DNA of 64,000 nucleotides from Bacillota bacterium (GCA_015059485.1 SVAH01000007.1:3011-67010), one strand, 5' to 3'; positions 1 to 39,787 are shown, numbered from the stretch's first letter. Notes: a model not told the origin generated them from the sequence alone. Numbers and translations are program-made.

Positions 1-1
1 T

Positions 2-132
2 AGTAAAATGTGTTTTTGCTCCCCAGACTCGGATGCTGCACAAGCTGCAATTAAAGTAAGAAAGAATTAATAATTAACTTTACAATTTAAATTTAAAAGA
101 CTAAGTAAATCAACACAACTTAGTCTTTTTTT
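2..132 (+). repeat. Junction repeat family A, copy 1 (frame open to window edge)
   Basis: Coding remnant ...SPDSDAAQAAIKVRKN* ends at 70. Core ACAAGCTGCAATTAAAG at 40..56. Hairpin AGACTAAGT..ACTTAGTCT plus T-run at 98..132. Confidence 0.7.
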
Positions 133-159
133 GTGATATAATTTTATTAGGTGATAAAA

Positions 160-723
160 ATGATTAAGGGTAAAGTAATAATTGTTGCAGGAAATAAAAG
201 AGCTGGTAAAACAACACTAACAATGATGTTACATGATAAATATAATTATAATTATTATAATTTTGATATGTTATTGGATTCCATTGAAGCATCATTTCCT
301 GTATTAAAAGATCATAATGATGATAAATATATTTCTTTACTAAATGAAATGGTAAAAAGAAGTTTGGACGATGCCAACAATTATGGTGTAAGTACAGTAT
401 ATGAATACATCTTTACTCCTCAACAATTGAGTAATTTCAAATTTAAAGATCAAGTTCAAATTTATTTCTTGGCGAATCTAGACATAACTGAGGATAACAT
501 AAGAGAAGATATGAAAAAATACTCAAAACCATTTGACTGGCCAAGTTATGTATCTGTTGAAGATATCGAAAGAAATGTAAAAGAAATTATTAATAAAAAT
601 GAACAATTAAAAATAGAATGTCCGAAATATAAATTTGAATTAATTAATACGAGTAGAGGAGACAATAGAAATATAGTATTATCTAAACTAGCCAATAGAA
701 TTGCAAGTGTAGAAAAATCTTAG
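160..723 (+). CDS. P-loop NTPase / kinase-like protein
   Basis: ORF 151..723. ATG at 160 follows a TAGGTGAT SD. Walker A GNKRAGKTT at the N-terminus. Paralog of 12208..12759. Confidence 0.6.
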   Translation: MIKGKVIIVAGNKRAGKTTLTMMLHDKYNYNYYNFDMLLDSIEASFPVLKDHNDDKYISLLNEMVKRSLDDANNYGVSTVYEYIFTPQQLSNFKFKDQVQIYFLANLDITEDNIREDMKKYSKPFDWPSYVSVEDIERNVKEIINKNEQLKIECPKYKFELINTSRGDNRNIVLSKLANRIASVEKS

Positions 724-747
724 TTTTATTTCTAACAAATATATATA

Positions 748-984
748 AGTATATACAACTGTAATAGAAGCAATGATAATTTCTTTGATATGACTAAATA
801 TGCTTGAGATGGTAATATTGGACATATAATTGAAGAAATAAAAATTTAATTAAATAAATAGTTATTAAAAAAGTCATTTTAGTAAATATAAATGACTGCT
901 GATATAAAGATAGTACAAGCTGCAATCAAAGCAAAAAAGAACTAATATATATTATTAAAAGACTAGGTAAAACTAGTCTTTTTT
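748..984 (+). repeat. Junction repeat family A, copy 2, with embedded NUDIX 3' fragment
   Basis: AGTATATAcaACTGTAATAgAAGcAATG block at 748..775. AAGTCATTTTAGT at 871..883. Core ACAAGCTGCAATcAAAG at 915..931. Perfect hairpin AAAAGACTAG..CTAGTCTTTTTT at 957..984. Confidence 0.75.
775..860 (+). pseudogene. Decayed 3' fragment of a NUDIX gene (copy of 10659..10745)
   Basis: Near-identical to the last ~87 nt of CDS 10341..10745 (GATAATTTCTTTGATATGAC...GGACATATAATTGAAGAAATAAAAAT). Contains an in-frame TGA where the intact copy has GGC. No 5' part present. Confidence 0.7.
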
Positions 985-997
985 ATATTCATAAAAT

Positions 998-1018
998 AGT
1001 AATATTGCGATTAATCTT
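998..1018 (+). repeat. Family B right-arm half-site (AGTAATATTGCGATTAATCTT)
   Basis: Inverted match to ATCGCA.TATTA at 1951..1975 on the other side of the CDF gene. Confidence 0.5.
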
Positions 1019-1060
1019 ATTTTTTAAAAGTATGATATAATTAATATGGAAGTGATAGGA

Positions 1061-1948
1061 ATGAAGAAAACTGAAAAAAATATATTAATAGCTTTTATTT
1101 TAAATATATCTTTTTCAATATTTGAATTTTTTGGTGGTTTATTTACTAATTCAGTAGCCATATTATCTGATTCAATTCATGATTTAGGAGACGCATTATC
1201 TATTGGAATATCTTATTTTATGGAAAGAAAAAGTAAAAAAAGTGCTGATAATAAATATACTTATGGATATATTAGATATTCTGTATTAGGTGGAGTAATT
1301 ACTACAACTATATTAATAGTAGGATCAATATTAGTAATTATAGGGGCTATAAAAAGATTGTTTAATCCTGTAGAGGTTAATTATAATGGAATGATAATAT
1401 TTGCAATAGTGGGAGTAGTATTAAACTTTTTAGCAGCATATATTACAAGAGAAGGTAACTCAATAAATCAAAAGTCAGTTAATCTACATATGCTTGAAGA
1501 TGTTTTTGGGTGGATAGTAGTATTAGCTGGAGCCATTATAATGAATTTTACTGATATAATAATGATTGATTCAATAATGAGTATTGGAGTGGCAGTATTT
1601 ATTTTAGTAAATGCTTTAAAAAATTTAAAACAAGTATTAGACTTATTTCTTGAAAAAACACCTAAAGAAATTGATATAGGTGAATTGAAAAAGCATTTAT
1701 TAGAAATAGATGGAGTTGATGATATTCATCATATTCATGTGTGGAGTATTGATGGATTTAATAATTATGCAACAATGCATATTGTCACAAAATCAAAAAA
1801 TATTAAAAATGTAAAACACATGATTAGAGAAGAATTAGAAGAACATAACATTTGTCATGCTATTTTAGAAACAGAAGATGAAGTATGTGATGATAAAGAT
1901 TGTCATGTTGAATTTAAAGAGAAAACCTATCATCATCACCATCATTAA
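1061..1948 (+). CDS. Cation diffusion facilitator (Zn/Co/Cd efflux) transporter
   Basis: ORF 1046..1948; ATG at 1061 after GGAAGTGATAGG. SDSIHDLGD motif in TM2, six TM segments, HHIHVW cytoplasmic domain, His-rich C-terminal tail. Confidence 0.85.
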   Translation: MKKTEKNILIAFILNISFSIFEFFGGLFTNSVAILSDSIHDLGDALSIGISYFMERKSKKSADNKYTYGYIRYSVLGGVITTTILIVGSILVIIGAIKRLFNPVEVNYNGMIIFAIVGVVLNFLAAYITREGNSINQKSVNLHMLEDVFGWIVVLAGAIIMNFTDIIMIDSIMSIGVAVFILVNALKNLKQVLDLFLEKTPKEIDIGELKKHLLEIDGVDDIHHIHVWSIDGFNNYATMHIVTKSKNIKNVKHMIREELEEHNICHAILETEDEVCDDKDCHVEFKEKTYHHHHH

Positions 1949-1950
1949 AT

Positions 1951-1975
1951 AATCGCACTATTAAGATATTACGAG
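1951..1975 (+). repeat. Family B left-arm copy (AATCGCACTATTAAGATATTACGAG)
   Basis: Starts 3 nt after the CDF stop codon. Same motif follows the stops at 8989, 19670 and 20133. Confidence 0.6.
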
Positions 1976-2015
1976 AAAAAAATATAGTTATATTTTTGAT
2001 AAGATATATTATTGA

Positions 2016-2180
2016 AGTATATAATCAGGTAAGAAAGAATAATTGAAGGTATTATAAAACAAAGTTTTACTTAATCCAAAGTTGAATATTTTATCGCCTT
2101 CTTTTGAACACTACAATACAAGCTGCAATTAAAGCAAAGAAGAATTAATAAATAAAGACTAGGTAAAATTAGCCTTTTTT
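2016..2180 (+). repeat. Junction repeat family A, copy 3
   Basis: AGTATATAatcAgGTAAgAAAGAATAATTG block at 2016..2045. Core ACAAGCTGCAATTAAAG at 2118..2134; remnant ...IQAAIKAKKN*. Partly degenerate hairpin plus T-run at 2154..2180. Confidence 0.7.
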
Positions 2181-2254
2181 ATGTTATAATGAATGTAATA
2201 TTTAATGTTTGTTTAATAAAAAAGAGTTTAATTATATTTGAGGTGGTGAAAACT

Positions 2255-2944
2255 ATGCGAATATTAATTGTTGAAGATGAAGAATCTCTTGCTGAATTAG
2301 TTGCAAATAGATTAAAGAAAGAAAAATACATTGTTGATGTTTCTCTAGATGGAGAAGACGGCTTATATAATGCTTTAATGGATGTATATGATCTTATAAT
2401 ATTAGATATAATGTTACCAGGTATTAATGGTATTGAAATATTAAAAGAAATAAAAAAGAATAATATCAAAGCTAAAGTAATAATGCTAACAGCTAAATCT
2501 GAACTTGAAGATAAATTGCTTGGATTTAGTGAAGGTGCTAATGATTATATTCCAAAACCTTTTCATATAGATGAAGTAGTAGCAAGAGTAAATGCACAGC
2601 TTAGAATAGAAAAAGTTAAAAACAATAATCTTGAGTTTGGTGATTTAATATTAGACTTAAAAACATCTGATATTATTAATAAAAATAATAATGAGAGAAT
2701 AAATATAATTAACAAAGAATTTCAGCTCTTAGAATACTTTATGAATAATCCAAATCAAGTTCTTTCAAAAGAAATGATATATGATAAAGTATGGGGCTTA
2801 GAAAACGACTCTATATCTAATAACTTAGAAGCATATTTATCATTTATTCGTAAAAAATTAAAATTAATTAATTCCAATGTGGGAATTAAATCACTTCGAA
2901 ACATTGGATATAAGATGGAGTATAACGATGAAGGAATTAAATAG
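2255..2944 (+). CDS. OmpR-family response regulator
   Basis: ATG at 2255 after GAGGTGGTGA. MRILIVEDEE, DLIILDIMLPG, LTAKS receiver motifs. Winged-helix C-terminus LSKEMIYDKVWG. Confidence 0.9.
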   Translation: MRILIVEDEESLAELVANRLKKEKYIVDVSLDGEDGLYNALMDVYDLIILDIMLPGINGIEILKEIKKNNIKAKVIMLTAKSELEDKLLGFSEGANDYIPKPFHIDEVVARVNAQLRIEKVKNNNLEFGDLILDLKTSDIINKNNNERINIINKEFQLLEYFMNNPNQVLSKEMIYDKVWGLENDSISNNLEAYLSFIRKKLKLINSNVGIKSLRNIGYKMEYNDEGIK

Positions 2945-4142
2945 AAAAGTATTTAAAACTATATTTTGTATATTATCATTATTTATAATAACAGGTATTG
3001 TTATTTATAATGTAAGTTCATATAAAAAAGAATATGAAAGTGTTAAAAGAACTTTAAAGATGGTAGAGGAAAGAAGTAAGAATGAACCAAGGGGATTTAA
3101 TAATTTTGTTCCAGAACCTAGAGAAAGAAATTTTGACAATATAATGATTATGGATTATGAAGTATATACAGTTAAACTTAGTAACAGCAAGATAGAAAAA
3201 ATAATTAGTCATAGTAATGATACAAGTGATTTTGATATTGAAAATATTGCAAAAATAATTATTGGTAAAAATAAAGGTATAAGCATTGGTAATCTTTATA
3301 GTAATAATTATTCATATAATTACACTGATAACACAGTTATAGTAATTAATACTAATAATATTAATAAAAAACTAACGCTTGTATTAATTGAATCATTTAT
3401 AGCATTAATTGGATTTGAGATTATAATTTATTATATTTCTAAAATGCTCACAAAAAGAATTACAAAGCCAGCAAATGAATCATTTTTAAAACAAAAAGAA
3501 TTTATTGCAGACGCATCACATGAACTTAAAACACCACTTGCAGTAATAATGGCATCATCAGATGAACTTAAAAGTGATAAAAAGAACGCCAAATATGTAG
3601 ATAATATTAAATATGAATCTGAAAGAATGAATACATTAATTAAAAGCTTACTCGATTTATCAAAATTAGAGAATGGAGTATCAATAAATAGTTATAAAGA
3701 TGAAAACATTTCTAAAATAATTGAGAGAGTTAGCTTAACATTTGAGGGAATAGCTTTTGAACAAGATATTAAAATTAAAACTAATATTGAAGATGACATA
3801 ATATTTAAATGCAGTAAAGAAGAAATAGAAAAACTAATATCTATCATACTTGATAATGCTATTAAACATAGTTACAAAAAATCTTCGGTAATTGTCAATG
3901 TGAATAAAGATAAAAATAATATCAATATTGAAATAATTAATTTTGGAGATCCAATTAAAAGTGGAGATGAAGAAAAAATATTTGAAAGATTTTATCGAGC
4001 AGATAAATCTAGAAATAGAGATGCTAACCGTTATGGATTAGGACTTGCTATAGCAAAGAATATAGTAATTAATCACAATGGAACAATAAGAGCAAATTCC
4101 AAAGATGGAAAAACAAGTTTTATAATAAATTTAAAAAAATAA
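2928..4142 (+). CDS. Sensor histidine kinase
   Basis: ATG at 2928 overlaps the RR stop. Two TM segments. H-box ADASHELKTPL, N-box LDNAIKHS, FERFYRAD, G-box GLGLAIAKNIV. Confidence 0.85.
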   Translation: MKELNRKVFKTIFCILSLFIITGIVIYNVSSYKKEYESVKRTLKMVEERSKNEPRGFNNFVPEPRERNFDNIMIMDYEVYTVKLSNSKIEKIISHSNDTSDFDIENIAKIIIGKNKGISIGNLYSNNYSYNYTDNTVIVINTNNINKKLTLVLIESFIALIGFEIIIYYISKMLTKRITKPANESFLKQKEFIADASHELKTPLAVIMASSDELKSDKKNAKYVDNIKYESERMNTLIKSLLDLSKLENGVSINSYKDENISKIIERVSLTFEGIAFEQDIKIKTNIEDDIIFKCSKEEIEKLISIILDNAIKHSYKKSSVIVNVNKDKNNINIEIINFGDPIKSGDEEKIFERFYRADKSRNRDANRYGLGLAIAKNIVINHNGTIRANSKDGKTSFIINLKK

Positions 4143-4173
4143 GAACATTAGAGAATTATTTAATGTTCTTTTA
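4142..4173 (+). terminator. Rho-independent terminator after the kinase gene
   Basis: AGAACATTA..TAATGTTCT hairpin followed by TTTT. Confidence 0.6.
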
Positions 4174-4406
4174 ATTTTTGTTATGTATTCTTATATTGTC
4201 GAAAGGAAAAGGTGATATATGATTAGATTTATTAAATATTAGTAAAAACTGAAAAAATCAGATATTAATAAAAGTCATAAAGATAATAAATGGAGATGAT
4301 ATATGAATTAATAAAATTTAATGTTTATTTAATAAAATTATCATATTATTGTTTTGATGGAGGAGATGATAATTAAAATGAATAAACAAAATAGTGAGGT
4401 GATAAA

Positions 4407-6089
4407 ATGTATATTATAAAGAATGCTCTAGTTAATATTAAAAGAAATAAAGGAAGAAATATTCTAATTGCTTTAATTATAATGGTTATTTCAGCAGCTT
4501 GTGCAGTAACTCTTGCTATTCGTGAAAGTGCTGAAAAAATAATAACTAGTTATGAGGAACAAAATAAAATAGAAGCAACCATTAGCCTGAATAGAGAAAG
4601 TATTATGAAAGAATTTAGAGATAGTAACAAGAGCCAGGAAGAAATGATTAGTGCTTTTAATAGTATAGAGAGTGTTACTGAAGAAGATATTATTAATTAT
4701 GGTGATAGTGACTATTTAGAAAGTTTTTACTATACTTATGATTTATCGGTAAATGCAAAGGATATTAAAGAGGCAACAGATAGTTTAGTAAAAGAAACTA
4801 CAACAACAAAAACTGAAACAACGACAAAGACAGAGCAATTTGAAGGATCAAGTGGCGGAAATAGACCTGGAATGCCACCAAGTGGTGGAGGTTCTAGAAC
4901 CACTACTAATAGGAAAACAACTACTACTCAGATTGAAAAAATATTTAATGAAAAAGCTAGTGCTGGAGCATTTAACTTGATTGGTTATAATAGTTACGAT
5001 GACATGAAAGATTTTATAAGTGGTAATTATGTAGTTACAAGTGGAGAATTAAGTAGTGATTTTGAAAGTGACACTTGTGTTATTAGTGAAGAACTTGCTA
5101 CTTTAAATAATCTAGAAGTTGGAAGTAAGATTACTATTGTAGATCCTAAAGATAGTACAAAGACATATGAACTTGAAGTAACCGGAATTTATAAAGAAAA
5201 CACAGATTCATCAAGTAATATGAAAAACATGTTTACAAGTTCAGCAAATAAAATTATCACTAATATTAATTTTGTGAAGAAAGTATTAGCAGGAAATAGT
5301 GAATTAAATGCAACTATAACTCCAACATTTATAGTTAAAGATGCAGATAGTGTAGAAAAATTTACATCCGAAATAACTGAAAAAGGATTATCTACTTATT
5401 ATCAAGTAACATCAAATTTAGAGACAATCGAAAGTGCTACTGAATCAGTTAAAAATGTTAGAATATTTGCAACTACATTCTTACTTATTACATTAATAAT
5501 TGGTGGTGTAGTATTAGTTGTAATTAATATGATTAATATTCGTGAAAGAAAATATGAAATAGGTGTTTTAAGAACAATAGGAATGAAAAAAAGTAAAGTA
5601 TCATTACAGTTCATGTTTGAATTATTAGTAGTATGTTTAATAGCACTATTAATGGGAGCAGGAATTGGATCATTTACAAGTGTTCCAGTTGCCAACTCAC
5701 TTCTAGCCAACGAAATATCAAATGCTAATAGTAAATATGAGAATATTAATAGTAATTTTGGTCATCGTGAATCTTTATCTGATAATCAAAAAGAAGAAAC
5801 TAAAGAAGAAAGTGTTGAAACTACAGAAGAATCTAGCAAAACTGATGAGAATAATACAGAATCCACTACTAGTGATAAAACTGAAACATCAAGTAGCAAA
5901 GAAAGAAAGCAACCATCATTTGGTATTGCCAGAGTAGAACAAGTAGATGATATAAATGCGGTTGTAAATTTAAAAGTATTAGCTGAGTTGCTTGGAATTG
6001 GCTTATTACTTACACTAATTGGAAGTCTTGCGAGTATGATTGCAATTTCAAGATTTTCACCGTTAACAATATTAAAGGAGAGAAGTTAA
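4407..6089 (+). CDS. FtsX/MacB-type ABC transporter permease with Ser/Thr-rich inserts
   Basis: N-terminal TM, large extracytoplasmic domain, C-terminal FtsX-like 3-TM bundle (RERKYEIGVLRTIGM). Directly precedes the ATPase gene. Confidence 0.75.
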   Translation: MYIIKNALVNIKRNKGRNILIALIIMVISAACAVTLAIRESAEKIITSYEEQNKIEATISLNRESIMKEFRDSNKSQEEMISAFNSIESVTEEDIINYGDSDYLESFYYTYDLSVNAKDIKEATDSLVKETTTTKTETTTKTEQFEGSSGGNRPGMPPSGGGSRTTTNRKTTTTQIEKIFNEKASAGAFNLIGYNSYDDMKDFISGNYVVTSGELSSDFESDTCVISEELATLNNLEVGSKITIVDPKDSTKTYELEVTGIYKENTDSSSNMKNMFTSSANKIITNINFVKKVLAGNSELNATITPTFIVKDADSVEKFTSEITEKGLSTYYQVTSNLETIESATESVKNVRIFATTFLLITLIIGGVVLVVINMINIRERKYEIGVLRTIGMKKSKVSLQFMFELLVVCLIALLMGAGIGSFTSVPVANSLLANEISNANSKYENINSNFGHRESLSDNQKEETKEESVETTEESSKTDENNTESTTSDKTETSSSKERKQPSFGIARVEQVDDINAVVNLKVLAELLGIGLLLTLIGSLASMIAISRFSPLTILKERS

Positions 6090-6090
6090 T

Positions 6091-6756
6091 ATGAATAAAG
6101 AAATAGTATTATCATTAAAAAATGTTAGTTATCGTTACCCAGATGCAGCAAAAGATGAATATGTTTTAAAGAATATTAATTATGAATTTGAAAAAGGTAA
6201 AACATATGCCATTAAAGGTAAAAGTGGTAGTGGTAAGACAACACTTCTATCATTAATTAGTGGATTAGAGAAAAAATATGAAGGTGAAATATCATATAAA
6301 GATAAAAAACTATCAAAAATGAATTTGGATGATTATCGTAGTCAAAATGTTGGAATTGTATTTCAAAGTTACAATTTATTGCCTCATTTAACTGCTCTTG
6401 AAAATATCATATTATCAATGGATATTAGTAAAGTAAAAGCAGATGATAAAAAGTGCCTTGCTATAAATTTAATGGAACAAGTTGGACTTTCTAAAAATAT
6501 GGCAAATAGAAGGATATTAAAATTATCTGGAGGAGAGCAACAAAGAATAGCAATAGCAAGGTCGCTATCATATAATCCAGAAATAATTCTTGCTGATGAG
6601 CCAACAGGTAATTTGGATCATGATACAGAGACAGAAATTCTTAATATATTTAGTGATTTAGCACATAAACAAAATAAATGTGTAATAATTGTTACGCATT
6701 CTGGAAATGTATGTAATTTAGTTGATAAAGTTTATGAACTAAAAAAGGAAAATTGA
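6091..6756 (+). CDS. ABC transporter ATP-binding protein
   Basis: Walker A GKSGSGKTT, signature LSGGEQQR, Walker B IILADEPT. Confidence 0.9.
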   Translation: MNKEIVLSLKNVSYRYPDAAKDEYVLKNINYEFEKGKTYAIKGKSGSGKTTLLSLISGLEKKYEGEISYKDKKLSKMNLDDYRSQNVGIVFQSYNLLPHLTALENIILSMDISKVKADDKKCLAINLMEQVGLSKNMANRRILKLSGGEQQRIAIARSLSYNPEIILADEPTGNLDHDTETEILNIFSDLAHKQNKCVIIVTHSGNVCNLVDKVYELKKEN

Positions 6757-6770
6757 AAGGAGTGATATTA

Positions 6771-6989
6771 ATGAAAGAAAAAGTAATAGTATTTATTGTA
6801 GGTTTATTGTTAGGTGCTATTATCTCAACAGGATCAATTTATTTCTATACAGTAGCTAATAGTTCAAATAATAATCAAGGTTCAAGAATAGAGATGAATG
6901 GTGGTACTCAGCCAAGTATGCCAAATGGTGAAAGGCCAGAAATACCTAATAATAACTCACAAAATAATAGCAGGACTAATAATAATTAG
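6771..6989 (+). CDS. Small membrane-anchored protein with Asn-rich tail
   Basis: ATG at 6771 after AAAGGAG. One TM helix, then a low-complexity tail. Confidence 0.45.
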   Translation: MKEKVIVFIVGLLLGAIISTGSIYFYTVANSSNNNQGSRIEMNGGTQPSMPNGERPEIPNNNSQNNSRTNNN

Positions 6990-7000
6990 TAGGTGAGTAT

Positions 7001-8596
7001 ATGAAAAAGATAATTAAATATTTTAGTTTCCTATTAATACTTTTATCAGTTTTAACTTTAAAAGTTAATGCTACAAGTAAAAGTATATATGTTAATTTGA
7101 ATGCATTAGAGTATTCTTTAGATAAAAGTAATTATACAAGTATTTTTGAATATAACTCACAAGAAGAATTTTTAAAAGATTATAAGTCTGGTAGTTTACC
7201 TGATATTTATATAACAAATTTCTTGTTTGATGGAGTATCGAGTGTTAAAACTCCAGATTTAGATGATTTTATAGAAAATGATTCTAATGATACTAAAATT
7301 AAAACACTAGAAATAAAAGTAATAAATATCAACACTACTGGAAACATAGAATTTACCGGTGAGATAAAAGGCGCTATGATTGGAGTAAATACTAATAATA
7401 AAACTGGTAATATTGATATCATATTAAACAATGCAAGTATAAATACTGATTCCAAAAAAGCTCCTGCGATATATGTATATAACAAAGATAAAAATTATAC
7501 TGATTGCAAAGTGACAATAAAAACTCTCTCTGGAACAAAAAATTATATTGAAGGTGGTAAACTCAAAAAAGTTAGTTTAATAGGATCAGATGAATTAGAT
7601 AGTTATAGTAGTTATTATTCTAATGACAATTTAACTAATTATAATAAATATTCATCTTATTATGGAATTTATACAAGTGATGAAATAAAGAATATTTTAT
7701 TTGCAACAGTACAAGCTGATAGTGAAGATTTAGCTGATGGTGATCCATATTACTTTTATAAATGTAGTGGAGCAATAAGTTCTGATATCGATTTGTATTT
7801 TGAGGGTGAAGGATATTTAAAAGTAACTGCTAAAGATGAAGGTATTGAAACTAAAGGAAATCTAACTTTTAGTGGAGGAACAGGAGATTATGAAATATAC
7901 TCAGAAGATGACGCTCTTAATACTACTACTGCAAATAGTAATGGACAAACAGTGAGAAATGATTTAACTATCAATGTTAACTCATTACTTGCATCGGTTT
8001 CAACAGATGCTGATGAAGGAGATGCAATAGATTCTAATGGTAAATTAACAATAAATGGTGGAACTATTTATGCGTTTGCTCATCCTACTAGTGGAGATGC
8101 TGGTCTTGATTCAGCAAATGGTATATATATAAATGGAGGTACTGTAATAGCAACAGGTAATATGGCAGATGCAATATCAAGTGATTCAAAACAAAAATAT
8201 ATATTTGCTAGTTTTAACAAGATAAGTTCTGACACATTAATTGTAATTAAAAATCAAAATGATGAAATAATTACTGCTTTTAAAACAGGAAGGAATATAG
8301 GTAATTTATTATATAGTAGTAAAAATTTAGATTATGAATCATACAAAATATATACTGGTGGAACTATTGATGGAAAAGAAACAAATGGATTATATACAAA
8401 AATAAATAGCTATACCGGTGGAGAAGAAATTGTATTTAATGATGCAAGTAATAGTATGAGATTAAGAGAAAATAATAATTTAAGTAGTGTTTTATTAAAA
8501 GCATTATTGATTGAAACTGGATTGCTTATAACAACTGTTTCATATTACATTGTAAGTAGTTATACAAAAAAGAAACAAAAGATTATTAGTAAATAA
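7001..8596 (+). CDS. Secreted beta-helix, carbohydrate-binding-like protein (Cthe_2159-like) with sorting-signal-like tail
   Basis: Signal peptide. Repeated GDAIDSNGKLTINGGTIYA / GLDSANGIYINGGTVIA motifs. C-terminus LIETG + hydrophobic stretch + KKKQK. Confidence 0.55.
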   Translation: MKKIIKYFSFLLILLSVLTLKVNATSKSIYVNLNALEYSLDKSNYTSIFEYNSQEEFLKDYKSGSLPDIYITNFLFDGVSSVKTPDLDDFIENDSNDTKIKTLEIKVININTTGNIEFTGEIKGAMIGVNTNNKTGNIDIILNNASINTDSKKAPAIYVYNKDKNYTDCKVTIKTLSGTKNYIEGGKLKKVSLIGSDELDSYSSYYSNDNLTNYNKYSSYYGIYTSDEIKNILFATVQADSEDLADGDPYYFYKCSGAISSDIDLYFEGEGYLKVTAKDEGIETKGNLTFSGGTGDYEIYSEDDALNTTTANSNGQTVRNDLTINVNSLLASVSTDADEGDAIDSNGKLTINGGTIYAFAHPTSGDAGLDSANGIYINGGTVIATGNMADAISSDSKQKYIFASFNKISSDTLIVIKNQNDEIITAFKTGRNIGNLLYSSKNLDYESYKIYTGGTIDGKETNGLYTKINSYTGGEEIVFNDASNSMRLRENNNLSSVLLKALLIETGLLITTVSYYIVSSYTKKKQKIISK

Positions 8597-8710
8597 TAAA
8601 TATACTCCTTTCTAAAAAAATGTAGTCTTAAAAAGATTACATTTTTTAATTATATTTTATAATTTAACTTTTATTTAATATTCACTGTTTATGATTAATA
8701 TATCAAAGGA

Positions 8711-8989
8711 GTGATGAATAAAATGAATACAATTAGAATAGAAAAAGATATAGAAGATGCAAATGACAAATTATTTTATTTACAAAAAGAAAGTGGAATC
8801 TTAAAAGACTATAATGACTATAACATGCCACCGTTAATAGTAGAATATAAAAATGATAAATTTAATCTGGTAGATGGGAATCATAGATATAGTACTTTAA
8901 AGAAACTAGGCATTAATAAGTATTATGTTATTATATGGGGAAATAAAAATTTAGAAGAAAATATTATTAAATTTTTAGGATTAAAATAA
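8711..8989 (+). CDS. Small ParB/Srx N-terminal-domain-like protein
   Basis: LVDGNHRYSTLKKLG resembles the ParB-N DGxHR motif. Only 92 aa, stand-alone. Confidence 0.4.
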   Translation: MMNKMNTIRIEKDIEDANDKLFYLQKESGILKDYNDYNMPPLIVEYKNDKFNLVDGNHRYSTLKKLGINKYYVIIWGNKNLEENIIKFLGLK

Positions 8990-9012
8990 TCGGAAGATTA
9001 AGATATTACGAG
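8988..9012 (+). repeat. Family B left-arm copy (AATCGGAAGATTAAGATATTACGAG)
   Basis: Overlaps the stop codon of 8711..8989. Confidence 0.6.
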
Positions 9013-9070
9013 CAAAAATACAGTGACATTTATGGTGACATTTATGATATAATTATAATAGGGTGTAGAT

Positions 9071-9703
9071 ATGAAAAATAAAAAGTTAATTAATTGGTTA
9101 TGCTTATCTGGCATTATTAGTATTATATTTTACTTATTACATGATATAGTTGGTGCTATGAACTATCCTGGATATAACTGGATGAGTCAGGCAGTAAGTG
9201 ATTTAACATCTACTGATGCACCATCATTTGTTGTAGCAAGTGGATTTACAACAGTATATAAAGTATTAACTTGTTTATGTTGTGCATTATTATGCATATT
9301 AGTAAAAAATGAAGATAAGAAAACATTAAGAATTGGAGTGTACTTATTTTCTATAATGAATTTTATATCCGCAATAGGATATGCATTATTTCCATTATCT
9401 AGTGCAGGATATGATGGAAGTATTCAAAGTTTTATTCACGTATATATCCTAACTACTTTAGTTGTTTTATTATCAATAGTATCTCTTGTATTAATTGCTA
9501 TTGGTTCATTTAAAAGCAAATATAAGTTACTTGGAATACTTGCAATAACATCACTTGTATTAATGTTTTTAGGAGCTGTAGGTAGTGCAAATGTACCAAA
9601 AGATATATTTGGTGTAGTAGAAAGATTGAGTACATATAGTGCAGTAGTATTTACTGGTATACTAGGAATATTTGGATTCAAAATAAACACATCAAAAGAT
9701 TAA
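9071..9703 (+). CDS. Polytopic membrane protein (DUF998-like)
   Basis: Six predicted TM helices. Family assignment is from memory only. Confidence 0.4.
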   Translation: MKNKKLINWLCLSGIISIIFYLLHDIVGAMNYPGYNWMSQAVSDLTSTDAPSFVVASGFTTVYKVLTCLCCALLCILVKNEDKKTLRIGVYLFSIMNFISAIGYALFPLSSAGYDGSIQSFIHVYILTTLVVLLSIVSLVLIAIGSFKSKYKLLGILAITSLVLMFLGAVGSANVPKDIFGVVERLSTYSAVVFTGILGIFGFKINTSKD

Positions 9704-9848
9704 GATGAAAGATAACAAATGTAAGAAGTAGGAATATTCCACTTGAAAAAAATATTTCATTCCGTATTATACTAAAATGAATTAATATGGTAAAAAAACT
9801 AGATTATTAATCTAGTTTTTTTATGATATAATTTTATTAGGTGATAAT

Positions 9849-10331
9849 ATGCAAATAATTGAATATGAAGAAAAATACTTAGAAGATGTTAAAGATTTAT
9901 TAGTAGAACTAGAAGAATACATATTAACTATTGATAAAGATCATCTAGATCAATTGCATCCAGAATATCGTGATAAGATGGCTATATTAGATTTAGAAGA
10001 AGTTAAAAACAATAATGGTAAATGCTTTATAGCTGTAGAAAATAATAAAGCAGTAGCAGTAATAATGGGAATAGTTGGAACATATGATGAGTATGACTAT
10101 TTGGATTATAAGTGTCCAAAAAGGGGAAAAATTACAGAATTAATAGTATCAAAAAATGTAAGAAGTAGTGGACTAGGGCAACAACTAATGAAAAAAATGG
10201 AAGATTATTTTAAGAGTATAGGATGCGAGTATGTTGTGATTGATGTATTTGCATATAACGATCTAGCTATCAATTTTTATAACAAGCAAGGATATCATAC
10301 AAGAGGATTAGCTGATATTAAAAGATTATAG
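9849..10331 (+). CDS. GNAT family N-acetyltransferase
   Basis: Acetyl-CoA motif A VRSSGLGQQLMKKM; size about 160 aa. Confidence 0.8.
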   Translation: MQIIEYEEKYLEDVKDLLVELEEYILTIDKDHLDQLHPEYRDKMAILDLEEVKNNNGKCFIAVENNKAVAVIMGIVGTYDEYDYLDYKCPKRGKITELIVSKNVRSSGLGQQLMKKMEDYFKSIGCEYVVIDVFAYNDLAINFYNKQGYHTRGLADIKRL

Positions 10332-10340
10332 GAGATATTT

Positions 10341-10745
10341 ATGAAACAATATAATATAGTTGTAATTTTTAACAAAGAAATGAATAAGACTTTAATGTGC
10401 AAAAGAACTAAAGAACCATATATAGGTATGTATAATTTAGTTGGTGGTAAAATAGAAAAAGAAAATGATGGTTTAAATGAAGCATATAGAGAATTAGTTG
10501 AAGAAACTAATATTAGCAAAAATGATGTAGAGTTAAAACATTTTATGAATATAGAATATGTTTCATTTAATAAATCATTAGAGGTTTATTATGGAATATT
10601 AAATAAAGATGTTGAACTAGTAGAAGAAGTTAATAAACTTGAATGGGTAGATATAAATGATAATTTCTTTGATATGACAAAGTATGCTGGCGAAGGAAAT
10701 ATTGGACATATAATTGAAGAAATAAAAATAGATTTAAATAAATAA
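10341..10745 (+). CDS. NUDIX hydrolase
   Basis: Nudix box GGKIEKENDGLNEAYRELVEETN. Confidence 0.85.
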   Translation: MKQYNIVVIFNKEMNKTLMCKRTKEPYIGMYNLVGGKIEKENDGLNEAYRELVEETNISKNDVELKHFMNIEYVSFNKSLEVYYGILNKDVELVEEVNKLEWVDINDNFFDMTKYAGEGNIGHIIEEIKIDLNK

Positions 10746-10755
10746 CAATTAAAAT

Positions 10756-10884
10756 AAGTCATTTTAGTCAGAAATAGAATGATATATTGTTCTAATAGGT
10801 ATGGGTAACAAGCTGCAATTAAAGTGAGAAAAAATTAGAACGCATAAGGTGAATGTAAGACTAGATGATTAATCTAGTCTTTTT
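10756..10884 (+). repeat. Junction repeat family A, copy 4
   Basis: AAGTCATTTTAGT at 10756..10768. Core ACAAGCTGCAATTAAAG at 10808..10824 (remnant QAAIKVRKN*, TAG stop). Hairpin AAGACTAGAT..ATCTAGTCTTTTT at 10857..10884. Confidence 0.75.
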
Positions 10885-10910
10885 GTGGTATAATTAATTT
10901 AGGTGATAAT

Positions 10911-11423
10911 ATGGAAAAAATAATTACAAATGATTATAATCTAAAAGATGAAGATATGACTGAACTTGTAGTAAGAGTTAAAATATTATTAATTAATAGT
11001 AATAATGAAATTCTATTAGGTTATTCACATAATGAATATCAATGTCCAGGTGGGCATGTTGAAGAAGGTGAAAATCTAATAAGTGCTATTAATCGAGAAG
11101 TACAAGAAGAAACAGGTATAGAATTAAATATTAAAGATGCTGAACCATTTGCATGCTCAATAGGCTATTATAAGGATTGGCCAGCAGTTGGCAAAAATAG
11201 AAAGATTGAAATTTATTATTACGAGATTAAGACAGATGAAAAACCAAATTTAGCTAATACAAAGTATACTGAATCAGAAAAGAAAGGTAATTTTGAATTA
11301 AGATACATCCCAATAGAAAACGTGGAAAATGAGTTTATTAAAAATGCTGAAATCTATGAAGATAAACACGGTATAGCAAAAGAAATGTTAAAAGTATTTA
11401 AAATATATAAAAATATAAATTAA
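10911..11423 (+). CDS. NUDIX hydrolase
   Basis: Nudix box PGGHVEEGENLISAINREVQEETGI. Confidence 0.85.
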   Translation: MEKIITNDYNLKDEDMTELVVRVKILLINSNNEILLGYSHNEYQCPGGHVEEGENLISAINREVQEETGIELNIKDAEPFACSIGYYKDWPAVGKNRKIEIYYYEIKTDEKPNLANTKYTESEKKGNFELRYIPIENVENEFIKNAEIYEDKHGIAKEMLKVFKIYKNIN

Positions 11424-11428
11424 TATAC

Positions 11429-11541
11429 AAGTCATTTTAGTCTTAATCGTCCCAAACTTGCCTATAGTACAAGCTGCAATTAAAGCAAAGAAATAATTGA
11501 ATGCAAAAGACTAAGTAAATGTCGTACAACTTAGTCTTTTT
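11429..11541 (+). repeat. Junction repeat family A, copy 5
   Basis: AAGTCATTTTAGT at 11429..11441. Core at 11469..11485 (remnant ...PIVQAAIKAKK*). Hairpin AAAAGACTAAGT..ACTTAGTCTTTTT at 11505..11541. Confidence 0.75.
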
Positions 11542-11570
11542 GTGCTATAATAAATTTAGGGGTGTCTACT

Positions 11571-12236
11571 ATGAAAAAAATAATTTGGATATTCGGAGAA
11601 TCAGCAACAGGAAAACTAACACTTATAAATAATCTATATAATAGTGATATTAATACAATTAATACTTTTAATATGAATAATAAAAAAATTAGTATTAGTG
11701 AAATAACTTTAGAAGATAGAAATCACGATAAATATGATAATGTTGTAGATATGGATTATTATGATGATTCTTTGATAGAAGAAGATGGACTTTATTTTAA
11801 TAAAGAAAATGCACTATTAAGAAGAAAAGGAATAATGTATGATATAGAAAACTTTTTAAATAACGATTCAGATGTTTTATTAATTAAAGGACAGGTTAAT
11901 GATATGAATACCAAAAGAGGTAATATTGTAGGCATTTTTTTAGATCAATATGCAAATAGAAATGATTTAGAAATAGAAGTATTTATATTACAAGTAACAG
12001 ATAAAGATATATTAAAAAATAGAATAGAAAGTAAACCTTGGTTTAAAGAATTTACTCATCAAGAAGAAAAAGATAGGTTATTAAGTGAAATACCTATTAA
12101 ACAAGAAAAACATAAGAATGATGTTATAAGTTGTTTTTCTAGTCATAGTATTCCAATAAGTATAATAGAGTCATTAAATAATAGTTATAGAATAGAAGGT
12201 GTTATAAATGGGAAAAGTAGTAATATTAGGAGGTAA
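11571..12236 (+). CDS. Hypothetical P-loop-like protein
   Basis: ATG at 11571. Degenerate Walker A GESATGKLT. 3' end overlaps the next gene by 29 nt. Confidence 0.35.
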   Translation: MKKIIWIFGESATGKLTLINNLYNSDINTINTFNMNNKKISISEITLEDRNHDKYDNVVDMDYYDDSLIEEDGLYFNKENALLRRKGIMYDIENFLNNDSDVLLIKGQVNDMNTKRGNIVGIFLDQYANRNDLEIEVFILQVTDKDILKNRIESKPWFKEFTHQEEKDRLLSEIPIKQEKHKNDVISCFSSHSIPISIIESLNNSYRIEGVINGKSSNIRR

Positions 12237-12759
12237 TGCTAGAAGTGGTAAAACTACACTAGCGTATAAATTACAAAAACAAGGATTTAATAGAATATCA
12301 TTTGATTTATTAAATACATATATTGAAGATGGATTAAATATTAATTTTGATGATCTAAGTGAAGAAAAAAAGTTTAATTTTTTTGAATCTGTTGTTAATG
12401 AAGCAGTAAGTGAATCAGAAAATGAAGATATTAATATAGTTGTAGATATGTATGATTATCTACCAAAAGATATAGAAAAGTTAAGTAATAAGGATAAAGT
12501 AGAAACTTATTTTTTTGCATATCCAGAATGTACAAAAGAAGAAATAAAATATAATGTAGTACATTATGCAAAGCCAACCGATTGGATAGCACAAGTAAAT
12601 GAAGAATACTTAAATAGTTGTGTTGATAGATTCTATGAAAGAAACAAAATATTAGTAGAAGAATGCAATAAGTATAATATAAATTTAATAGATACAAAAA
12701 GTGGAGATGAAAGAAATAAAATTATTGAAGATTTATTCAATAAAATAATTAATAAGTAG
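12208..12759 (+). CDS. P-loop NTPase / kinase-like protein (paralog of 160..723)
   Basis: Walker A GNARSGKTT. Collinear similarity to 160..723, including the KP.DW and SGD.RN motifs. Confidence 0.6.
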   Translation: MGKVVILGGNARSGKTTLAYKLQKQGFNRISFDLLNTYIEDGLNINFDDLSEEKKFNFFESVVNEAVSESENEDINIVVDMYDYLPKDIEKLSNKDKVETYFFAYPECTKEEIKYNVVHYAKPTDWIAQVNEEYLNSCVDRFYERNKILVEECNKYNINLIDTKSGDERNKIIEDLFNKIINK

Positions 12760-12790
12760 TCGAAGTCTTATTAATACCAAAATACATTCT

Positions 12791-12951
12791 AGTATATATT
12801 ACTGTAATATAAGGAATGCTTAAAGTACAAAAGAGCACTTAAAATGATATAAATTTCACCATCCCGAATGGAGCAGTTGTACAAGCTGCAATTAAAGAAT
12901 AGAAGAATTAATATAAAATGATTAAAAGACTAGGTAAGATAGTCTTTTTTT
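12791..12951 (+). repeat. Junction repeat family A, copy 6
   Basis: AGTATATATTACTGTAATATAAGGAATG at 12791..12818. Core at 12881..12897 (remnant ...GAVVQAAIKE*). Hairpin AAAAGACTAGGTAAGATAGTCTTTTTTT at 12924..12951. Confidence 0.75.
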
Positions 12952-13084
12952 GATATAATTTATATAGGTGATAATAATATGCATTTAGTAGAAATATTTG
13001 AAGGTATTGTTGGAGTTGGTTTTATTATTGCAGCTAATTGGCAGCAAACAGATTTTTGATGGAATATTTTACTCAAAAAAGTAA

Positions 13085-13969
13085 GTGCAGTGGTTAGTGA
13101 AAAAAATTCTAATTGGAGTATTTCTATTAATATTATTATCTGATAATTGTTATGCTATAGTAAAACCAACAAGTAAATTTTATGTAAATGATTATGCAAA
13201 CGTATTAACTGATGAAGTAGAAAGTTATATTTATAATAATAGTGTTAAATTATATAATGAAACATCTTCGCAAATAGTAGTTGTAACTGTTAAAAATCTT
13301 GAAGGTAAAGATTTAGAATCATATGCAACAGAGTTATTTAGAAATTTTGGAATAGGAGATAAGGAAAAAAATAACGGATTACTTTTATTACTTGCATTAG
13401 ATGAAAGGAAATCTAGAATTGAAGTGGGATATGGCCTTGAAGGAATTCTAACAGATGGAAAAACTGGAAGAATACAAGATGAATATATGATTCCATATTA
13501 TAAAGAAAATAACTTCAGTGAAGGAATGCTAAATGGTTATAAGGCTTTGTTTGAAATAGTGGCAAACGAATATGGATATACTGGGAAAGTAACTAAGGCA
13601 ACTAAAGTAAGTGAAGAAATAGAAATCCCTAATTCTATAGCTACTTTAATTGGATGTAAGTTAATACTTACTCTAGTATTGATTGCAATAGGGTTTAAAA
13701 ATAGAAAGATAAGATTTATTATTTTTTGTATATTAGAAATTGCAACTATTATTTTAGGCTATTTAACGTTTAAAATAGATCCTGCTCTAGCAATAACATT
13801 TGCATTTCTAGGTACAATATTCAATTTAGCCGTTAATGTAGATAATCAATCTAGTTTTTCTAGTGGTGGAAGACACTATAGCAGTGGGCACTCATATCAC
13901 AGTAGTGGTTCTTCTCATCATGGTGGTGGCGGTTCTTCAGGAGGTGGAGGCTCATCTAGATCTTTTTAA
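13085..13969 (+). CDS. TPM-domain (YgcG-like) membrane protein
   Basis: Signal/TM segment, YVNDYANVLTDE and GLLLLLALDERKSRIEVGYGLEG motifs, TM segments, Gly/Ser/His-rich tail. Start uncertain (GTG 13085 or 13097). Confidence 0.7.
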   Translation: MQWLVKKILIGVFLLILLSDNCYAIVKPTSKFYVNDYANVLTDEVESYIYNNSVKLYNETSSQIVVVTVKNLEGKDLESYATELFRNFGIGDKEKNNGLLLLLALDERKSRIEVGYGLEGILTDGKTGRIQDEYMIPYYKENNFSEGMLNGYKALFEIVANEYGYTGKVTKATKVSEEIEIPNSIATLIGCKLILTLVLIAIGFKNRKIRFIIFCILEIATIILGYLTFKIDPALAITFAFLGTIFNLAVNVDNQSSFSSGGRHYSSGHSYHSSGSSHHGGGGSSGGGGSSRSF

Positions 13970-13977
13970 GTTATAAT

Positions 13978-14020
13978 GCAATTAAAATAATCTAAAGCTA
14001 AGGTAAAACTAGCTTTTTTT
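13978..14020 (+). repeat. Short family A copy (GCAATTAAA + hairpin AAAGCTAAGGTAAAACTAGCTTTTTTT)
   Basis: Half core followed by a family-type terminator hairpin. Confidence 0.5.
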
Positions 14021-14096
14021 ATTTATAAAATATATAATACGCTAAACTAAATAATTTATAAAACTATGATATAATTGACATAGGTTGGTGATAAAA

Positions 14097-14573
14097 ATGT
14101 CTAAACTGTCAAATGTGCTAATGATGCTACAGTTACTTCAAAATAAGAGAAAGTATAGTATAAAGGAATTATCAGATAAGCTGGAAGTATCTCCAAGAAT
14201 GATAAGACAGTATAAAGATGAATTAGAATACGCAGGTATTTATATTGAAACAATATATGGGCCTTATGGAGGTTATGTATTAAATCAAGATGTTAAGATA
14301 CCAGAAAAATTTATTAAACCAGAAAATATTAAATTAGATAATAAAGAATATTATAATTTATTAAGTAAATGTATTAATAGTCATAATAAATGTTATATAG
14401 AGTATTATTCAAAAGAACACGATAAAATGACTAAGAGAATAATTAGACCATATAATTTAATGATACTAGATAATGAATGGGGAGTAGCGGCATATTGTGA
14501 AAACAAACAAGAAATAAGACATTTTTATTTAAATAGAATAACTTTAATAAAAGAATTAGATGAAAAGTTTTAA
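14097..14573 (+). CDS. Short HTH + WYL-domain transcriptional regulator
   Basis: ATG at 14097. HTH IKELSDKLEVSPRMIRQYKDEL. WYL-like RIIRPYNLMILDNEWGVAAYC. Confidence 0.55.
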   Translation: MSKLSNVLMMLQLLQNKRKYSIKELSDKLEVSPRMIRQYKDELEYAGIYIETIYGPYGGYVLNQDVKIPEKFIKPENIKLDNKEYYNLLSKCINSHNKCYIEYYSKEHDKMTKRIIRPYNLMILDNEWGVAAYCENKQEIRHFYLNRITLIKELDEKF

Positions 14574-14631
14574 TGTGACATAAATACTTCCTAATCTAGT
14601 TATATATTTATTTTAGAAAGAAGGTAAATAT

Positions 14632-15123
14632 ATGATTAAGTTAGATCAGTATCGTGATACTTGGATGTCACAAAAATTCGATGAAATTATTGGCTTTTAT
14701 CCTAGAGAATTTTATCCATTAGATAATTTTTCATCATTTAAAGTAGAATATAATGGATATTTATATTCATCTGCAGAGGAAGCTTTTCAAGTAAATTTAT
14801 TTATAGATGATTACCCAGAAATAGCAGAAGAAATTAAAAATAGTCATTCTGCACATGAAGCTCAAAAAATAAGATTTAAATACGAAAACAAAATAAAACT
14901 AAGTTCTAATGAAATATTAGAATTAATGGAAAAAATATTAAGGTGTAAAATAGAACAAAATCCTTATGTTTTGAAAAAATTATTAGAAACAAAAGAATAT
15001 ACTATAGTTGAAGATTCTCCCAAAGACAATTATTGGGGATGGGGAGTAAATAGAGATGGAGAAAACAAACTTGGAAAAATATGGATGAAATTAAGAGACG
15101 AATATAAAAATAAGTTATTATAG
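14632..15123 (+). CDS. NADAR (YbiA/DUF1768) family protein
   Basis: FYPLDNFSSF..YLYSSAEEAFQ, NYWGWG and NKLGKIWMKLRDE motifs. Confidence 0.7.
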   Translation: MIKLDQYRDTWMSQKFDEIIGFYPREFYPLDNFSSFKVEYNGYLYSSAEEAFQVNLFIDDYPEIAEEIKNSHSAHEAQKIRFKYENKIKLSSNEILELMEKILRCKIEQNPYVLKKLLETKEYTIVEDSPKDNYWGWGVNRDGENKLGKIWMKLRDEYKNKLL

Positions 15124-15225
15124 TCTAATTGTTTCATTCATTACTGCGAGGCAAGCTGAATTCAAATCGAAGGAAGTTGGGTTAAATATTTATTAATTTA
15201 TGTTATAATATTTATGGAGGTACTT

Positions 15226-15762: not shown

Positions 15763-15813
15763 CTAGGTAGTGAAGCGAACTATTCATGGTTCACTTCAAA
15801 AACTTAGTCTTTT

Positions 15814-15842
15814 TTGACAAATTTACATAAAAGTGCTATAAT
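15814..15842 (+). promoter_or_regulatory. Sigma-A type promoter of the valS leader
   Basis: TTGACA (15814..15819), 17-nt spacer, TATAAT (15837..15842). Confidence 0.65.
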
Positions 15843-15849
15843 CTTCTCA

Positions 15850-16086: not shown

Positions 16087-16190
16087 ATTTTAGGAGATGA
16101 TTAAAATGAAATTTATTTTTAAGGGTGATTATGTACGAGTCTAATGATTTTAATTTACTAAAAATAATAAAATAAGAAGGAGAGATTAAA

Positions 16191-18608: not shown

Positions 18609-18662
18609 TTATTTTAAATCTAACTGCACTTACTACTGCAGTTAGGGTAAATTAGAATTTAA

Positions 18663-19275: not shown

Positions 19276-19290
19276 ATTAATAATGATTTT

Positions 19291-19670: not shown

Positions 19671-19671
19671 T

Positions 19672-39783: not shown

Positions 39784-39787
39784 AGTA

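Follow-up and report, generated by a model that had tools for sequence, protein, structure and literature searches.

The first 18.8 kb of a 64,000-nt stretch of DNA from a Bacillota bacterium (GCA_015059485.1 SVAH01000007.1:3011-67010, hereafter the window) probably belong to a tandem-accretion island, of which they are the distal part and whose anchor is the 3' end of ppdK, the gene for pyruvate, phosphate dikinase (PPDK). The best explanation of this island, and a likely one, is tandem accretion at the ppdK 3' end driven by a large serine recombinase (LSR), with small units moved in a similar way and later trimmed. The initial annotation of the window described an array of gene units separated by a direct repeat with a 17-nt core, and proposed repeated site-specific integration at a single attachment (att) site. 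This proposal is supported by the ppdK target, by an LSR gene upstream of the window and by breakpoints at the core.

A pattern search located the 17-mer ACAAGCTGCAATTAAAG exactly at positions 40-56, 2118-2134, 10808-10824, 11469-11485 and 12881-12897, and with one mismatch (T12C) at 915-931, all on the + strand and as initially annotated. The chance expectation is 0.37 copies and the largest shuffle count is 2. No further copies were present in the 64 kb when up to three mismatches were allowed. Two eroded copies, also reported in the initial annotation, are real: a half core, TGCAATTAAAA at 13977-13987, directly adjoins the stop codon of a TPM-domain gene and misses the crossover half, and a degenerate core, GCAAGCTG-AATTCAAATCG, is located at 15151-15169. 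Decay is greatest in the cores of the window that are farthest from ppdK. An alignment of the core copies, as the initial annotation had suggested, displays a sharp jump in conservation at the core, well above the flanks, with a variable pre-core region and a moderately conserved 3' tail (CAAAGAAGAATTAA). The module that follows the core is composed of this tail, a hairpin (A-tract, stem and T-tract), an extended -10 promoter (TGnTATAAT) and a ribosome-binding site (RBS), AGGTGAT, right before the next ATG. The initial annotation reported the same hairpin family and promoter after each core. The AGACTA..TAGTCTTT hairpin is indeed found five times, all within 98-12947 (0 expected), but the copies at 2118 and 13977 have variant hairpins and the copy at 15151 has none. 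A conserved fold spanning the junction was not found; in single-sequence folds (no covariance model was built), nothing but hairpins of local extent and, at the crossover, a partial palindrome appeared. Most cores are additionally preceded, 26-50 nt upstream, by a motif that we call Box L (AAGTCATTTTAGTC; window 872-885, 10757-10770, 11430-11443 and 18729-18742, and many other loci). Box L is kept across species and the spacer between Box L and core is not conserved.

The intact target gene that the initial annotation predicted was found in a contig of another sample of the same species (L002), reached by an exact-protein match of the first cassette gene. Upstream of this gene, L002 encodes an 877-aa PPDK with the C-terminus ...RLAAAQAAIKVRKN / VSCSPFRVPIARLAAAQAAIKVRKN, in which the 17-mer covers the codons for (A)QAAIK. 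The PPDK end pattern is ...AAAQAAIKxxKN*, and the 17-mer is located within the last 10 ppdK codons. L002 is 100% identical to window positions 34-971 over 938 nt, beginning 5 nt before the core. To the left of that point, the window's own contig (L001) contains the 3' part of another gene block and not ppdK. As ppdK is joined to the cassette in L002 and another block is joined to it in L001, L002 represents the empty site and the window the occupied site. The variants T6C and T12C that occur in cores across genomes are both synonymous in the ppdK frame. Among relatives with 90-96% identical PPDK, the protein varies at its C-terminus (mostly 873-880 aa, some 886-929 aa), as expected when inserts supply the tail.

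The initial annotation reported no recombinase next to the array and advised a search for an integrase upstream of the window. This search was successful: an LSR gene lies just off the left end, with its stop codon 1,752 nt left of position 1. It is truncated at the start of L001 to the C-terminal 440 aa, which are 96.8% identical to P0231 (562 aa, PF00239 + PF07508) and 90% to P0226, and it is followed by a Macro gene, a gene for a 351-aa lipoprotein-like protein, the P arm and core copy 1. This P arm (1-39, + strand), the right end of the element lying left of the window, is degenerate and ppdK-like; the same type precedes the attR core at L237 13677, and L002 has genuine ppdK codons in its place. 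Core copy 1 (40-56, + strand) is the attR of the LSR element, with the crossover CAAGC(N) at 41-46.

Intact LSR homologues (P0121-P0240) are numerous, have a length of 532-562 aa and contain PF00239 and PF07508, the Resolvase catalytic and Recombinase domains that typify LSRs of 450-700 aa. They comprise five lineages with 55-97% mutual identity, and in every lineage looked up the gene is located downstream of ppdK and in the same orientation. For P0128 and P0147, the LSR gene lies 3 kb after ppdK. The order is ppdK, small open reading frames (ORFs; 92 + 64 aa or 154 aa, no Pfam match), methylase, Eco47II endonuclease, ASCH and LSR in the former, and ppdK, a helix-turn-helix (HTH) protein, a 762-aa metallophosphoesterase and LSR in the latter. 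The P0226 element measures 21.8 kb from the ppdK core (L130 12604) to the core at L237 13677 and carries a type I restriction-modification system, GmrSD, SSB, a small resolvase and a DnaB-like helicase, and then the LSR, an 85-aa protein, Macro, a 320-aa protein, the P arm and the core. The order of LSR, Macro, a protein of 3xx aa and P arm is shared with the sequence beside the window. Four hosts with differing neighbor genes carry an identical LSR protein (P0164) and its 6-kb element after ppdK, in one of them behind an intervening 1.7-kb unit. A Pfam scan of 101 array ORFs gave one Resolvase match, namely a frameshifted LSR (Resolvase and Recombinase domains) in the 5.1-kb first unit of L144/L158, which is bounded by the ppdK core and the core that follows it. 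The best NCBIfam matches of the LSRs are CcrB (142-146 bits, cut-off 900), CcrC (102-110 bits, cut-off 900) and CcrA (61 bits, cut-off 700), besides XisF, all far below the cut-offs. With 142-146 bits against a cut-off of 900 for CcrB, they are not Ccr orthologues.

The four hosts of the P0164 element define the element ends at the base level. At the left end, the sequence is host-specific up to gctCAAGC(T/C) and constant afterwards, whereas at the right end it is constant up to ctcACAAGC and host-specific afterwards. Immediately before CAAGC, attL has the base of the host and attR that of the element, which places the strand exchange within CAAGC(N), i.e. core positions 1-6. Conservation of the tail and of the remaining 11 nt of the 17-mer presumably reflects the need for each incoming unit to complete the ppdK reading frame. 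Other junctions agree with these limits. L087 and L161 share their sequence from gcACAAGC rightwards, and the tail of the unit retains only ACAAGC of the 17-mer. L073 and L151 are common up to ACAAGC, after which L151 has an LSR-type P' arm (GGCCATAAAGTCGAGCCAAAAATAG) that is also the ppdK end in L225. In L151, this P' arm adjoins a remnant core far within the array, which indicates that remnant cores are usable. In L142/L164 and in the three contexts of a NUDIX170 unit (window, L129 and L158), identity begins at the core. LSR att sites generally show imperfect dyad symmetry about a non-palindromic central dinucleotide. The junctions of the island display a weak dyad whose best register is centered between positions 1 and 2 of the core (on average 4.5/10 complementary versus 3.0 in controls), and 13% of the sites have at least 7/10 complementarity versus 0.6% in controls. 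From this axis, the crossover dinucleotide is possibly CA at positions 1-2. A crossover in the terminator loop or promoter, suggested by breakpoints in L002 and in a further contig (L128), was dropped as main mechanism after the element ends had been mapped in the four hosts.

Small units have been transferred between species. For the NUDIX170 unit (window 10808-11442), identity to L158 reaches 95.9% over 634 nt, although the ppdK genes of L158 and the window's species agree at only 68.4%, and identity to L129 is 99%; the matching sequence extends from the core to just after Box L. A two-gene unit is 95.9% identical over 1431 nt between L073 and L151, with a ppdK identity of 73.3%. As the units are about 96% and ppdK only 68-73% identical, units of about 0.6-1.4 kb crossed species boundaries recently. 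Pairwise comparison of junctions points to the core as well: in 143 pairs with a common right and a different left flank, identity ends 0-5 nt left of the core, and in 9 pairs with a common left and a different right flank, it ends 0-16 nt right of the core. Left and right arms thus reassort around the core. The initial annotation expected differences between strains with breakpoints exactly at the core. Such breakpoints exist, but some rearrangements break elsewhere: in Box L, in the loop of the terminator or in the RBS.

The proposed mechanism would start with integrative elements of 5-22 kb, with the LSR near the right end and an HTH protein at the left end, that insert at the end of ppdK, the attachment site being the last ~10 codons and strand exchange taking place within CAAGC(N). 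Each insertion would bring new ppdK tail codons and a terminator (the P' arm) and displace the former tail to a position downstream of the ppdK-like P arm that the element itself carries, which adds one extra core copy. Units of 0.6-1.4 kb, which have the same two arms, a compact promoter and RBS and a single cargo gene but no recombinase, would accumulate likewise and are presumably moved in trans by the LSR, as is thought for recombinase-less pseudo-SCC units (SCC, staphylococcal cassette chromosome). Later, units may be trimmed or lost by deletion between repeated boxes, namely Box L, the core, the terminator and the RBS. The sequences themselves show the target gene, the linkage of LSR and ppdK, the base-level element ends, the empty and occupied sites and the passage of small units between species, from which it is inferred that this particular LSR catalyses the events and acts on the small units.

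Several observations weigh against this explanation. The attL of the window's own LSR element was not recovered, and the LSR of L144/L158 is frameshifted. At core position 6, the same LSR element (L239-L242) reads T (attL) and C (attR) in one host and the reverse in the other three, which would fit a simple placement of the crossover only if host and element both vary. The conservation profile, based on 82 inspected junctions, is biased since the collection was selected on a core match. The right ends of shared blocks are often located at Box L or stop codons and not at the next core; the three NUDIX170 copies, for instance, are common only to Box L (AAGTCATTTTAGT), after which unrelated spacers of 26-50 nt precede the next core. 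L002 and the window diverge inside the terminator loop. A further strain (L128, Logan contig DRR868891_953) lacks window positions 14094-19794, i.e. WYL, NADAR, NUDIX, T-box valS and two small genes. Its joint (L128 3342-3397) lies within a 14-nt RBS repeat, ATAGGTTGGTGATA, just before start codons, and this repeat is too short for a mis-join in a k=31 assembly; homology- or slippage-driven events clearly contribute. We read these off-core breakpoints as repeat-mediated deletion on top of site-specific insertion. Internal junctions carry two P-type arms and, by canonical LSR rules (attP x attB only), would be no integration targets. Finally, a search by terminal repeats detected no circular single-cassette contigs, and a 17-mer scan of viral contigs gave 51 matches, all in unrelated coding sequence, and no attP-bearing contig.

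The small units may constitute a true gene-cassette system run by the LSR, equivalent in function to an integron in a lineage without integrons, a possibility that we put forward tentatively and would not favor. Miniature single-gene cassettes, each with a terminator, promoter, RBS and both att arms, would then be excised by the LSR of a co-resident element and re-inserted at ppdK or at any remnant core. The cassettes would circulate among species of uncultured gut and rumen Bacilli, and each newcomer would rewrite the last codons of an essential glycolytic enzyme.

Conversely, the small units could be leftovers of internal deletion in large LSR elements that never moved by themselves, and were shared between species via larger segments that were trimmed afterwards. 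Frequent repeat-mediated deletion, evident from the breakpoints that lie in Box L, in the terminator loop and in the RBS, speaks for such a history, as do the relic of a NUDIX gene carried by the kinase unit of the window and the decay of the most distal junctions. It is nevertheless unlikely: between species with 68-73% ppdK identity, units of 0.63-1.4 kb still agree at 96%, with identity that begins exactly at the core, the same compact layout of tail, terminator, promoter and RBS is found across dozens of unrelated cargo genes, and one right arm occurs with different left arms and one left arm with different right arms.

A dedicated recombinase would be dispensable if the units were exchanged by homologous recombination or gene conversion between the ~150-nt intergenic modules (ppdK 3' end, terminator and promoter) after natural transformation. 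In its favor, module sequences agree by 70-90% across stretches longer than 100 nt, and the breakpoints are heterogeneous. We consider it improbable, since some junctions share CAAGC only and have unrelated flanks (GGCCATAAAG..., AAATTTGGC... and GCCATTAAAGCGCAT...), the same 6-kb element is present in four hosts with exact ends, and the LSR gene travels with elements in every lineage examined.

A Xer-type tyrosine recombinase that acts on the core as a dif-like site, as for integrative mobile elements exploiting Xer (IMEX) or pdif modules, where host XerC/D bind an 11-6-11 site at every module boundary, is a highly improbable driver. In favor of this, a Xer-type gene is located 0-2 genes upstream of ppdK in L130 (9027-9911), L144 (4869-5747), L169 (5555-6448), L239 (1237-2109) and L240 (1-382), and the weak dyad described above surrounds the crossover. 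This adjacency, probably host synteny, is however absent in the window's species (L002) and in L030, L034, L058, L121 and L135. The ppdK-adjacent Xer proteins resemble the Xer-like protein of the window at least as much as they resemble one another (44-51% identity) and do not form a distinct ppdK-linked clade. L130 has a Xer gene beside ppdK, yet its element carries its own LSR, and the junction, compared by eye, is unlike the dif sites of B. subtilis and E. coli. With an adjacency restricted to some lineages and no ppdK-linked clade, Xer was rejected as driver. The Xer-type proteins score 130-155 bits on the integron-integrase subfamily model (cut-off 265) and reach the XerC/XerD cut-offs. 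The Xer-like gene of the window (39764-40681) is preceded by a 706-aa ORF, which we presume from its size alone to be topA, and nothing links it to the array.

A generic terminator or repetitive extragenic palindromic (REP)-like repeat behind unrelated genes, without link to variable content, which the initial annotation named as the finding that would speak against integration, is extremely improbable: the hairpin does resemble an intrinsic terminator, but core and AGACTA hairpin are confined to the array part of the 64 kb, which argues against a genome-wide terminator type, among the matches listed from other genomes the junction of core and hairpin was seen in arrays only, with ppdK leftmost wherever the left flank is present (several array loci lack it), and gene content varies at the repeats.

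The island is an SCC-like accretion island at a new target, and not an integron. In SCC and the enterococcal cassette chromosome (ECC), LSRs (ccrAB) insert elements at the rlmH 3' end, and direct repeats of ~50 nt flank the units (PMC6222049). A composite SCC island of three units, including a pseudo-SCC, has been described (10.1101/336396). The ppdK island shares with these systems an element-borne LSR, an att site in the 3' end of a conserved housekeeping gene, units bounded by direct repeats from the target 3' end, tandem composites in which some units lack a recombinase, and highly variable cargo. It differs in its target (ppdK versus rlmH), in its recombinase (a single LSR gene versus the ccrAB pair, below all Ccr cut-offs and related at the superfamily level only), in its central motif (CAAGC versus TATCATAA) and in its hosts, which are uncultured low-GC gut and rumen Bacilli. 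Moreover, a unit can be as small as one gene of 0.6 kb that brings along a terminator, a promoter and an RBS, and the array in and beside the window has at least 10 junctions.

The initial annotation called the array integron-like in logic, and the logic is indeed alike: the array is ordered and co-oriented, consists mostly of single-gene cassettes between repeated recombination sites, has its newest units apparently nearest the anchor, and its cassettes cross species. The likeness ends there. The recombinase is a serine recombinase and not IntI, which has an extra attC-binding insertion and is encoded beside attI, the only tyrosine recombinases seen being of the Xer type; each cassette has its own promoter instead of a common Pc; and the array is anchored in the coding end of a housekeeping gene, which the insert must complete. 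No attC features (imperfect palindromes with R''/L''-L'/R' boxes and a GTTRRRY core) were seen in the 82 inspected junctions, where the conserved segment is ACAAGCTGCAATTAAAG, the same as the ppdK codons, although no attC covariance model was run. Integron identity was therefore rejected on recombinase, site and promoter. A further comparison is offered by the cis-mobilizable elements (CIMEs) known from work of Pavlovic in 2004 and Bellanger in 2011, which reportedly arise by site-specific accretion with integrative and conjugative elements of the ICESt1/ICESt3 type at the fda 3' end, and for which cis- and trans-mobilization is said to have been proposed. In both cases the 3' end of a core gene is occupied by integrase-less, att-flanked units arranged in tandem with an element that encodes an integrase, but the ICESt1/ICESt3 group has tyrosine integrases and one or two large units and lacks many miniature promoter-bearing cassettes. 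Tycheposon-type islands, reportedly described at tRNA genes in Prochlorococcus by Hackl in 2023, also display repeated integration at one gene end, partial target copies and cargo between them, but they target tRNA genes via tyrosine recombinases, and host and element types differ.

In the literature searched, no paper ties serine recombinases to ppdK. The ppdK 3' end is a previously undescribed integration hot spot, with its recombinase family, in abundant uncultured low-GC gut Bacilli of animals and humans, and SCC-style accretion is not confined to rlmH, staphylococci or enterococci. The LSR and its site additionally form a natural LSR/att pair with a crossover mapped to within 5-6 bp, and LSRs are sought as tools for genome integration. 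The question that carries most interest is the mobilization of single-gene units as such: if the small units are self-mobile, they would represent a second, mechanistically independent way to gather and express single genes, the task that integrons solve.

The distribution of the system was assessed by a 17-mer scan with one genome per species, in which most listed rows are chance or unrelated coding matches. Among the matches listed, at least about 25 low-GC (22-31%) metagenome-assembled genomes, labeled as Tenericutes, Bacilli, Bacillales or Erysipelotrichaceae, contain the motif as a true ppdK end or as a non-coding remnant followed by the hairpin. In metagenomes, the pattern of Box L and core was found in 32 contigs, many with 3-6 cores. 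All array units are co-oriented with ppdK, which stands at the left end wherever the left flank is present (several array loci lack left-flank sequence). Close PPDK relatives are named Candidatus Coprovivens (Bacilli incertae sedis). According to Pfam, the cargo of the 101 array ORFs consists mostly of small enzymes and comprises NUDIX (6), GNAT (5), cytidine/dCMP deaminase (4) and UDG (3), and further WYL, metallophosphoesterase, AsnA, adenosine deaminase, CDF and class II aminoacyl-tRNA synthetase. The predicted cargo (NUDIX, GNAT, nucleotide deaminases, UDG, Macro/NADAR, kinases and aminoacyl-tRNA synthetases) points to nucleotide or ADP-ribose housekeeping or conflict functions.

In one species (L135-L141, P0118), the ppdK 3' end (about 12607-12790) encodes a 929-aa PPDK with a C-terminal extension of 52 residues after AAIK. 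Its core is TCAAGCTGCAATTAAAG and no repeated cores follow. L135 and L136 differ by a UvrD-WYL-NADAR insertion ~270 nt past this core, which was set aside as a different and uninformative type of event.

The variable region of the window extends beyond valS, where the initial annotation let the array end. The 805-aa gene at 16191-18608 is identified as ValS by NCBIfam PRK13208 (993 bits, cut-off 738) and has a T-box in front; a leuS identity, hinted at by Pfam, was dropped on this basis. Decayed junctions are located on both sides, at 15119-15169 (an eroded Box L, a spacer and a core with a deletion, which resembles the arm at L144 13497) and at 18729-18810 (Box L, a hairpin-type spacer and an eroded core), and valS is missing at the locus in L128. 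The T-box leader (15854-16067) and valS (together 15854-18608) are thus situated inside the variable region and not at its edge, and this valS may be an accessory copy. Genes further right in the window (e.g. 22678-23151 and 27027-28136) are conserved genes that follow arrays in other species. A second aminoacyl-tRNA synthetase in such an array is a 511-aa class II enzyme (tRNA-synt_2b + HGTP_anticodon) between two cores of L158 (6737-8269).

The units of the window are described here from left to right, all on the + strand and with genes assigned by Pfam. The first junction module (57-159) contains the ppdK tail codons KVRKN*, a hairpin (94-131), an extended -10 promoter (134-142) and an RBS, and is identical to the post-ppdK sequence in L002. 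It is followed by the first cassette gene (160-723), which encodes a P-loop NTPase/kinase-like protein of 187 aa, and by a non-coding relic (772-870) that corresponds to the last ~60 nt of a NUDIX134 gene and its 3' flank and is 88% identical to 10656-10754 (repeat family D5). Box L, spacer and core copy 2 occupy 872-931. The next unit (957-1948) has a hairpin (957-982), a promoter and a CDF cation-efflux gene (1061-1948), and is 78% identical to a copy in L010 whose left end is at the core. Between L010 1-1330 and window 914-2187, the CDF cassette and a pre-core arm of ~160 nt are circularly permuted: the arm lies upstream of the core in L010, from another species, and downstream of the gene in the window. 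The alternative pre-core arm precoreX and core copy 3 occupy 1957-2134.

A long unit without internal cores (2154-10745; repeat search and Pfam) comprises a variant hairpin and promoter, a response regulator, a histidine kinase, FtsX/ABC, a 531-aa protein, a ParB/GmrSD_N-like fragment, DUF998, GNAT and NUDIX134, with internal terminator/promoter modules at 8620-8665 and 9795-9859. After Box L, spacer and core copy 4 (10757-10824), the NUDIX170 cassette (10825-11443) consists of the tail, a hairpin (10857-10881), a promoter, the gene (10911-11423) and Box L, and is followed by core copy 5 (11469-11485). The next unit (11505-12759) has a hairpin, a promoter and two P-loop proteins (11571-12236 and 12208-12759), and ends in a long pre-core arm (type 4) with core copy 6 (12764-12897), an arm also present in L019, L038, L073, L151 and L153. 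A hairpin, a promoter, a short upstream ORF and the TPM-domain gene (12924-13969) precede the half core with its variant hairpin (13977-14020). A promoter/RBS module with the genes for a WYL regulator (14097-14573) and NADAR (14632-15123) spans 14061-15123, and a NUDIX gene (15226-15762) lies beyond the first decayed junction. The cargo listed initially (kinase; CDF; two-component system and ABC through NUDIX; NUDIX; P-loop pair; TPM; WYL-NADAR; NUDIX) is matched by Pfam, and PADLOC gave weak matches to candidate families only.

Some smaller features accompany these units. In the TPM cassette (12980-13097), a 26-codon ORF directly follows the promoter and RBS, and the TPM gene begins ~40 nt further with a non-ATG start; the ORF could be a frameshifted N-terminus or a leader peptide. 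Just after the stop codons of several units without Box L, a short motif is found, GATTAAGATATTACGAG (window 1957-1985, 8990-9015 and 9698-9712; L010 44-70), which may be an alternative 3' boundary element. One class of spacers between Box L and core forms a small hairpin with compensatory changes (GTAGGTA/TACCTAC, GTAGGA/TCCTAC and GTAC/GTAC). The loop of a terminator-like hairpin encloses a second small hairpin, GAAGYGAAC..GTTCAC (window 15770-15800; L002 3865-3892; L118 near 1990-2040), which in L002 starts exactly at the point where L002 and the window diverge.

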